From a virus (lineage: Duplodnaviria; Heunggongvirae; Uroviricota; Caudoviricetes): a stretch of DNA of 8,171 bases. This document shows positions 1,510-2,344 of the stretch, in pieces. Under the pieces are notes generated by a model. It was given only the letters and a program-made list of their open reading frames with translations, did not search any database and had not been told where the DNA came from. Where the stretch lies: positions 1 through 8,171 of the IMG/VR virus record IMGVR_UViG_2778261420_000020. One strand, 5' to 3'. The position numbers were made by a program, and so were the translations under genes. Each line of letters opens with the position of its first letter. Positions within the stretch are counted from its first letter, which is position 1.

Positions 1510-1538
1510 TTGTGAGCCCTTGCAATATTCATTAATAT
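1510..1538 (+). promoter_or_regulatory. Candidate sigma70-type promoter for the GIY-YIG gene (TTGTGA, 17-nt spacer, TAATAT)
   Basis: The -35-like TTGTGA at 1510..1515 and the -10-like TAATAT at 1533..1538 are separated by 17 nt and sit in an AT-rich region just upstream of the ATG at 1571. Based on sequence pattern only. Confidence 0.25.
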
Positions 1539-1570
1539 ACGTCTCACAAATAATTCATAGATATTGCAAA

Positions 1571-2344
1571 ATGGATATTACTGAGTTTCCTTCTGGAGTA
1601 ATTGAACACCTTGGCTGGTATGTATACCGATTGATTGATCCGAGGGACGGAAGCACCTTCTATGTAGGGAAAGGCAAAGGTAACCGCGTATTTGCCCATA
1701 TGCGCGGTGAAGTGGCAGCGACTGATGATGACGAGTTACTGAGCAACAAGCTAAAGCAAATTAGAGAAATAAGGTTAGCAGGACTTGAGGTTATCCATGT
1801 CATCCATCGACACGGAATGACTGATGAAAAGACGGCGTACGAAGTCGAAGCAGCACTTATTGATGCCTACCCTGGGTTAACGAATATCATGAATGGTGCT
1901 GGCAGCAATGAATTCGGCGCCGCGCATGTCAAAGAGTTGATAGCAACATATCAACCCGAAACCATAACATTTCATCATAAAGCATTAATGATTTCCGTTA
2001 ACAGAAGTGCAAAGGATTCAGAGCTTTATGATGCGGTTCGATTTAGCTGGCGCATTAATGTCTCTCGCGCCAGCCAAGCAGAAGTCATTCTTGCTACTGT
2101 AAGGGGGATCGTTCGAGGGGTTTTCATTGCTGATAAATGGCTCAAATCAACACGTGAAAATTTCCCTACGATGAAATACTGGGACGAGGATCCGGACTTT
2201 GAGGCAACACAAAGTTCTCGCTATGGTTTTGAAGGTCGAGAAGCCCCACCTGAAATAGCAAATCTTTATCTTGGAAAAAAAATACCAGATGAATTAAGAA
2301 AAAAAGGAGCTATGTCCCCGGTCCGTTACTCACCTAATTTTTGA
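1571..2344 (+). CDS. GIY-YIG nuclease-domain protein with a C-terminal domain of unknown function (putative defence or homing-type endonuclease, prophage cargo gene)
   Basis: The N-terminal region has the GIY-YIG pattern GWYVYRL...(8)...[14 protein letters not shown], followed by candidate catalytic Glu (YEVEAAL) and Asn (LTNIMNG). The ORF track starts at a TTG at 1520, but the first ATG is at 1571 and the candidate promoter overlaps 1520, so the ATG start is preferred. Stop codon at 2342..2344. GC content is lower than in the neighbouring tail genes. Confidence 0.75.

Follow-up and report, generated by a model that had tools for sequence, protein, structure and literature searches.

The 8,171-nucleotide stretch of DNA analysed here (the window) comprises positions 1 to 8,171 of the IMG/VR virus record IMGVR_UViG_2778261420_000020, which is assigned to the Caudoviricetes. 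Its plus strand carries a gene (1571..2344) encoding CMoRE, the single-gene type IV restriction endonuclease of the PD-T4-3 system. The gene is flanked on the right by the remnant of a pinE-type serine invertase gene, pin (2405..2812, minus strand), and on the left by an attachment-site (att) block derived from the tRNA gene serU (1331..1394, minus strand). CMoRE is the only gene between pin and the att junction. This is a cargo position, in that it lies between these two features, deviates in G+C content (44% vs 58%) and has variable contents.

Identity and functional residues of the protein

In the six-frame list of open reading frames of the window, the open frame extends from 1520 to 2344 on the plus strand. 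Its first in-frame ATG, at 1571, was taken as the biologically used start, which gives 257 amino acids plus a stop codon. This agrees with the ~257 amino acids estimated by an initial annotation of the sequence, and is the length both of the RefSeq annotation WP_000355484.1 and of the crystallised protein. The PADLOC model for PD-T4-3 (PDLC04031) matches residues 1-256 at model positions 1-255 of 256, with an E-value of 2.4e-140 and 464 bits. The PDB chains 9U75 and 9U8D, which represent the PD-T4-3 protein of E. coli O157:H7 and are labelled ‘5hmC specific restriction endonuclease’ in the PDB fold library (5hmC, 5-hydroxymethylcytosine), are identical to the window protein at 253 of 257 positions (98.4%), and the protein of strain APEC O1 (9U7U and 9U7Z; E 1.1e-150 for 9U7U) is ~86% identical. 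The RefSeq product name of WP_000355484.1 is ‘LEM-3-like GIY-YIG domain-containing protein’, and the coding sequence in the window is nucleotide-identical to the genes for this protein in E. coli 357900 and O157:H7 N8B7-2 (loci L001 and L003).

The initial annotation had suggested a profile hidden Markov model search with the generic Pfam family PF01541 and with defence-system models. Such a search succeeded with the PADLOC model and with Pfam PF22945 (LEM-3-like GIY-YIG; residues 28-110, E 2.1e-14, 54.2 bits vs a cutoff of 27), but PF01541 itself remained below threshold (13.9 vs 22.6 bits) and would have missed the gene. No NCBIfam model matches the protein, and PHROGs assigns it to phrog_5356, a family of unknown function. 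The system is a single-component one, with neighbouring genes that differ at every locus examined (L001, L003, L005, L007-L009 and L011-L014). The proposal that the gene is prophage cargo and encodes a GIY-YIG nuclease acting against phages as a single-gene system has therefore stood, because the protein is PD-T4-3/CMoRE, for which single-gene defence against T-even phages has been demonstrated experimentally in the literature. The locus can thus be regarded as a positive control, in which motif and position were enough for a reader of raw sequence to foresee an anti-phage nuclease encoded by one gene. Its value as a discovery is small: the system is already known and mechanistically solved, and the gene is not new. 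Functional selection revealed the family in 2022, its role in a native host was validated in 2025, and its structure and mechanism followed in 2026.

The N-terminal part of the protein (1571..1936, plus strand) contains the GIY-YIG domain, as indicated by the PF22945 match, by invariant residues, by published mutagenesis of its tyrosines (PMC12923530) and by Foldseek searches in which the matches to this domain, after self hits, were the GIY-YIG domains of UvrC and I-TevI (1YD6, 1MK0 and 1LN0). The motif residues map to G15-W-Y17-V-Y19, F30-Y31-V-G33, R39, E93 and N105, and V92, L96, R80 and Y127 were mapped as well. In an alignment of 30 homologues down to 55% identity, Y17, Y19, Y31, R39, H43, E93, N105 and Y127 are invariant; together with the PF22945 score above the cutoff, this confirms that the GIY-YIG motif set is intact, as the initial annotation had supposed. 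The same alignment points to R39 and E93 as the probable catalytic pair, of which PMC12923530 makes no mention, naming only the tyrosines. Residue mapping places the acidic autoinhibitory loop at D52-D53-D54-E55 (1724..1735, plus strand). The acidic run reads DDDE in the window protein vs DDDD in the crystallised O157:H7 protein, and the loop region is acidic in most of the 30 homologues.

Residues 123-257 (1937..2341, plus strand) form the C-terminal modified-cytosine sensor domain, which includes Y127. Further invariant residues of this domain in the 30 homologues include Y153, R157, W160, W190, N197, F198, R217, Y233 and Y253. A C-terminal domain had been correctly anticipated, but it comprises ~135 amino acids (residues ~123-257) rather than ~170, and it is not unrecognised, since it has been characterised as a sensor of 5hmC and glucosylated 5hmC (5ghmC). 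Four substitutions separate the window protein from the crystallised allele: T51A, E55D, Q169K and N197H (window residue first). With regard to the last of these, N197 (codon 2159-2161) is invariant in the window and in the 30 diverse homologues, and the crystallised O157:H7 allele has H197. The allele used for the structures is atypical at this conserved sensor-domain position. The coding sequence of the copy in the window, as far as can be read from its nucleotides, shows no sign of inactivation.

CMoRE is the new name that Liu et al. (Nat Commun 2026; PMC12923530) gave to the PD-T4-3 system, together with the structures 9U75, 9U8D, 9U7U and 9U7Z; the findings in this paragraph are theirs unless another source is given. 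These authors credit its discovery to Vassallo et al. 2022 (PMC9519451), who used functional selection to recover it from ECOR68 and who refer to a GIY-YIG nuclease when describing their new systems. The single gene lowers plating of T2, T4 and T6 by ~10^5 in a non-abortive manner. Binding and cutting by the purified enzyme are limited to DNA containing 5hmC or 5ghmC, and T4(C) escapes while T4(hmC) is restricted. The cut pattern is CN11/N9G with 2-nt 3′ overhangs and two modified sites are required; strict sequence specificity is absent, the modified cytosine being what is needed. The enzyme is a tetramer, arranged as a dimer of dimers, and its nuclease motif was described as GIYxY-YIG, consisting of Y17, Y19 and Y31, with mutagenesis of the tyrosines. 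A 15-residue acidic loop between helices 2 and 3 autoinhibits the enzyme, and neutralising four acidic residues of the loop leads to cutting of ordinary DNA and to toxicity. The ligand 5-hydroxymethyl-dCTP (5hm-dCTP) binds at the edge of the C-terminal domain, not in a pocket, and is hydrogen-bonded to the Y127 main chain; the authors found no sequence or structural homologue of this domain and inferred a distinct fold. Wild-type carriers grow normally at a multiplicity of infection (MOI) above 1, and sequencing showed their DNA to be untouched. Under its ‘native promoter’ the O157:H7 gene defends strongly. Elsewhere, deletion of PD-T4-3 in the clinical isolate NILS69 was found to cause sensitivity to Tevenvirinae phages (10.1101/2024.12.20.629700), and a Capnocytophaga homologue with 48% identity degrades modified T4 DNA and, at high dose, also Mu DNA (PMC12366544).

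Cleavage of 5hmC/5ghmC DNA and defence against T-even phages are thus known from the literature for proteins at 98%, 86% and 48% identity, and we carry the biochemistry and phage range over to the window protein by analogy with the 98.4%-identical one. On this basis, the C-terminal domain would bind 5-hydroxymethyl- or glucosyl-hydroxymethyl-cytosine, and a dimer within the tetramer would read two modified cytosines ~21 bp apart. The N-terminal GIY-YIG domain would then cut between them (CN11/N9G, 2-nt 3′ overhangs), while the acidic loop over the active site would shut out ordinary host DNA. The predicted outcome is the direct, non-abortive destruction of incoming T-even DNA, which would protect both the lysogen and the prophage.

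Genomic setting of the gene

The tail-fibre invertase remnant that the initial annotation described to the right of the gene is real. Pfam (Resolvase) and alignment to the intact pinE of L001 and L003 show that pin lacks codons 1-49, including the region of the catalytic serine, with homology ending at a deletion junction at 2812/2813, and that codon 135 carries a nonsense change (CGA>TGA, R135*; 2555-2557). Beyond 2812, pin is fused to the interior of a tail-fibre-assembly gene, and the invertible tail-fibre segment has lost ~0.78 kb. The junction was absent from 5,426 complete E. coli genomes by BLAST, and an exact search of GTDB representative genomes found nothing. The invertible tail-fibre switch is frozen in this strain. 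Further to the right lie a tail-fibre assembly gene, a tail fibre, ymfQ, and genes for baseplate J/gp47, gp46, V and a Mu gp44-like hub.

On the left, the att-site remnant proposed in the initial annotation likewise proved genuine. Rfam (a partial tRNA-like match) and BLAST identify the 3′ part of tRNA-Ser(CGA) serU, from the anticodon arm to the CCA end (1331..1394, minus strand; the 3′ 64-66 nt), as an identity block at the prophage/host junction. It is accompanied by ~280 bp of copied chromosomal yodB-serU intergenic flank (1051..1330), recognised by BLAST to the serU locus. In nearly all E. coli, the serU locus matches block and flank with 97% identity, and this match stops within the annotated tRNA-Ser. 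ARAGORN found no complete tRNA in the window, because only the 3′ fragment is present. Since the identity to the serU tRNA and flank ends at 1394, phage DNA starts at 1395. In strains 357900 and O157:H7, the att junction and ~280 bp of serU flank are now found in the thrW/CP4-6 region and not at serU, so this end of the prophage, with a piece of its former integration site, has evidently been relocated or recombined since integration at serU. We had suspected thrW as the att site, as the intact prophage of strain 357900 abuts thrW and an integrase; there is no thrW repeat in the window, and thrW was therefore rejected in favour of serU.

Further to the left, the window contains a gene for an AraC-family regulator (1-744, minus strand; 247 amino acids, 35% G+C) and ~300 bp of A+T-rich DNA (745-1050). 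In L001 and L003 this segment abuts an integrase fragment of the insertion sequence type. Segment 1-1050 has the appearance of a leftover from a different island, one that was acquired horizontally and has no relation to the prophage.

The position of the gene had been compared to that of mcrA in prophage e14, and this analogy holds: the terminal gene order in K-12 e14 is ymfQ-stfP-tfaP-tfaE-stfE-pinE-mcrA-att. In phage Mu, mom is located beside gin at the right end. We surveyed the slot by sampling homologues of pinE at different identity levels. Downstream of pinE we found CMoRE alone (L001 and L003), CMoRE with an ATP-dependent nuclease (L005), with a type II restriction-modification system (L008) or with hypothetical proteins (L009), a 215-amino-acid hypothetical protein (L010), Avs2 (L007, with a second, inverted pinE-CMoRE unit nearby) and, in L006, nothing (host pphA). 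On the sequences compared, the pinE-to-att slot of e14-like prophages thus behaves as a variable defence hotspot. A literature search for a described pinE/mcrA defence hotspot returned only papers on PinQ/PinR. As a separate observation, L007 (NZ_CP068155.1, 1089972-1097379) contains two inverted pinE copies with one common tail-fibre segment, Avs2 lying beside one copy and CMoRE beside the other, an arrangement that may be the product of recombination between two prophages.

Homology among the CMoRE loci extends from window position 1373, inside the tRNA anticodon arm, to the stop codon of pin, and the left edge of the cassette consists of ~20 nt derived from the serU anticodon arm. On the right, sequence comparison revealed a boundary motif of ~38 bp between the CMoRE stop and the pin stop (2367..2404), which includes a short hairpin (AGCACG...CGTGCT). 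The motif (~30 bp, with hairpin; …CAGCACG(A/T)TCTTGCATACGACGTGCTACGGTTT) is found just after the pin stop in all relatives, including prophages without cargo. It is duplicated around a ~1.0-kb CMoRE cassette in L005, as 28-nt direct repeats (2446-2473 and 3466-3493) 1020 bp apart, and in L009, as 17-nt direct repeats (2452-2468 and 3476-3492) 1024 bp apart. These features suggest that the gene moves as a ~1-kb cassette exchanged at these two boundaries. Visual inspection of the boundary repeat and of the anticodon arm of the tRNA showed a likeness to the crossover sites of the Din family (gix/hix) that is limited, at best, to a half-site.

Distribution of the family and fold of the sensor domain

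The gene is present in 838 of the 5,426 complete E. coli genomes at a nucleotide identity of at least 95% (~15%). Segment 1200-2700 of the window recurs in 605 complete E. coli genomes, and 119 have 80% or more of the entire window. The conservation of the protein family, which has at least 6,577 cluster representatives, is unusually high, with ~60% identity across phyla. No isolated phage in INPHARED has a homologue with at least 60% identity. Full-length homologues with 38-45% identity are found in jumbo phages of Serratia (Moabite and 2050HW), Pectobacterium, Pantoea, Pseudomonas (OBP) and Klebsiella (N1M2); they are annotated as ‘putative homing nuclease’ in GenBank, and may serve as weapons against competitors whose DNA is modified. 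In other bacteria than E. coli, the orthologue (83-85% identity; L011-L014) is a lone gene in chromosomal islets and not part of a prophage: the Salmonella orthologue adjoins a RelE/helix-turn-helix (HTH) pair, and the Enterobacter orthologue adjoins an IS110 transposase or small unknown open reading frames.

A Pfam scan of residues 123-257 at E-values up to 10 found no domain, and thus gave no sequence-profile match for the sensor. In structural comparisons, its fold matches were an ASCH protein (5GUQ; score 5.3), YTHDC1 (5.2), the EVE-HNH restriction enzyme VcaM4I (6YEX; score 5.2, Foldseek E 0.027), the EVE proteins 2AR1 and THYN1 (5J3E) with scores of 5.2 and 5.1, and the N-terminal domains of archaeal McrB (6N0S and 6P0G) with scores of 4.7 and 3.6. 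These PUA-like matches are marginal, with TM values of 0.35-0.5 at 5-15% identity. The sensor domain may therefore weakly resemble PUA-like (EVE/YTH/ASCH) readers of modified bases, which differs from the published view that it has no homologue; we treat this resemblance as a lead and not as a finding. The PUA-like superfamily is used by other type IV enzymes to flip out modified bases. If the sensor does belong here, a 5hmC flipped out of duplex DNA may in reality be bound in the canonical pocket of the barrel, which would be lined by the invariant aromatic residues Y153, W160, W190, F198 and Y233, and not at the edge where free 5hm-dCTP was observed. We tentatively put forward, as a joint proposal that is possible though somewhat doubtful, that the sensor is a highly diverged PUA-like reader and that the end from pin to att is a modular hotspot in which ~1-kb cassettes are swapped at the ~30-bp hairpin repeat and the serU att core.

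Expression, alternative explanations and relation to known systems

The explanation that best accounts for the data as a whole is that the window gene is CMoRE/PD-T4-3 and acts on incoming T-even phage DNA as published, which we regard as almost certain. Several points nevertheless weigh against it, most of which concern expression. The gene is preceded by an A+T-rich spacer of 176 bp (1395..1570, plus strand) that travels with it, cassette homology starting at 1373; the G+C content is 30% in the spacer, 43.9% in the coding sequence and 58% in the baseplate module, consistent with the initial annotation, which had noted a lower value for the gene than for the tail module. The same annotation had credited the gene with a candidate promoter of its own, but a sigma-70 consensus scan of the plus strand upstream of the gene yielded neither a promoter nor a terminator, the best candidates found by hand matched 8 of 12 positions, and a Shine-Dalgarno sequence is not obvious. 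Furthermore, the APEC O1 orthologue under its native promoter defends only weakly (PMC12923530), which indicates that activity depends on expression level. Of the four differences from the crystallised allele, two are next to or within the autoinhibitory loop, although none affects a residue whose function has been tested. The prophage around the gene is in decay, as the dead pin illustrates. On the other hand, the native-promoter defence reported in PMC12923530, strong for O157:H7 and weak for APEC O1, implies that a promoter exists in this spacer family and that its expression level matters. The spacer at 1395-1570 presumably holds this promoter, and the copy in the window is inferred to be expressed and probably active. 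An inverted repeat at 1520-1536 and 1553-1569 (TTGCAATAT…ATATTGCAA; 17-nt arms, 82% complementary) ends 1 nt before the ATG and could be an operator. As RNA it is no more stable than shuffled sequence (z -1.0), and the regions in front of the Salmonella and Enterobacter orthologues lack a conserved counterpart, so we make no regulatory claim for it.

The state of the prophage raises the question of whether the gene is an intact but silent or decaying relic, whose reading frame has been kept by recency and not by selection, and which contributes nothing in this strain. The dead pin and the partly deleted invertible segment beside it would fit this idea, as would the negative promoter scan and three single-nucleotide polymorphisms in the spacer that are unique to the window (1491, 1527 and 1548). 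However, the coding sequence is 100% identical to copies in many strains, without any disabling change, the ~60% identity across phyla points to strong purifying selection on the family, and the native-locus copy in NILS69 is active (10.1101/2024.12.20.629700). Since the coding sequence is perfectly conserved, we consider a silent relic unlikely. A different kind of activity is conceivable as well, namely that of a toxic nuclease which kills the infected cell by abortive infection instead of restricting phage DNA. Latent self-toxicity of the nuclease is evident from the 4A mutant of the acidic loop, which cleaves host DNA and is toxic (PMC12923530); however, carriers of the wild-type gene grow normally at MOI >1 with host DNA intact by sequencing (PMC12923530), and the acidic loop is intact in the window protein, which makes an abortive mode of action highly improbable.

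The initial annotation had also considered a free-standing homing endonuclease. Such an enzyme, of the Seg or I-TevI type, would spread by cutting cognate alleles that lack the gene. A GIY-YIG catalytic domain, the GenBank label of the jumbo-phage homologues (38-45%) and the mobility of the gene as a compact ~1-kb cassette would all be expected of such an element. The C-terminal domain, however, contains no DNA-binding module of the I-TevI/Seg type (zinc finger, NUMOD or HTH) and no Pfam domain in residues 123-257, and in crystals it binds 5hm-dCTP (PMC12923530). The enzyme acts without strict sequence specificity and requires a modified cytosine (PMC12923530). The gene resides in prophage cargo slots and chromosomal islets, and the Salmonella and Enterobacter copies are singletons outside phage gene clusters. 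We reject homing on three grounds, namely the kind of C-terminal domain, a cleavage that depends on modification and is relaxed in sequence, and the places where the gene is found in genomes; hardly any probability remains for it. These considerations leave restriction of T-even phage DNA by CMoRE as our preferred explanation. Some points are absent from the CMoRE papers that we consulted: that the gene in E. coli is cargo in the e14-mcrA slot, that this slot is a variable defence hotspot, that the prevalence in complete E. coli genomes is ~15%, and that the sensor is possibly PUA-like.

Among known systems, the closest is CMoRE of O157:H7 and APEC O1, which belongs to the same family, has the same architecture and is also a single gene. 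All catalytic, autoinhibitory and sensor residues are present in the window protein, and the differences from the O157:H7 copy consist in the four substitutions and the dead neighbouring pin. With the UvrC N-terminal and I-TevI catalytic domains, CMoRE has the fold of the catalytic core and the conserved Tyr/Arg/Glu/Asn residues in common, but it has an extra tyrosine (GIYxY-YIG), a 15-residue acidic insert, other partner domains and another biology. The fold of its sensor may be weakly like that of EVE/YTH/ASCH readers, but its ligand is at the domain edge rather than in a pocket (PMC12923530). The PvuRts1I/AbaSI family and GmrSD target the same modification (5hmC/5ghmC), and PvuRts1I and AbaSI, like CMoRE, reportedly cut at a fixed distance from two modified cytosines ~21-22 bp apart and leave 2-nt 3′ overhangs (in part after the discussion in PMC12923530). 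Finally, McrA (EcoKMcrA) of e14 in K-12 is found in the same slot, after pinE and before att, at the same ymfQ-stf-tfa-pinE prophage end, and it belongs to the same functional class of single-protein type IV restriction enzymes directed against modified cytosine. However, McrA is an unrelated HNH nuclease with specificity for 5-methylcytosine and 5hmC and without sequence similarity to the GIY-YIG enzyme, and e14 is integrated at icd, as opposed to serU for the prophage in the window.
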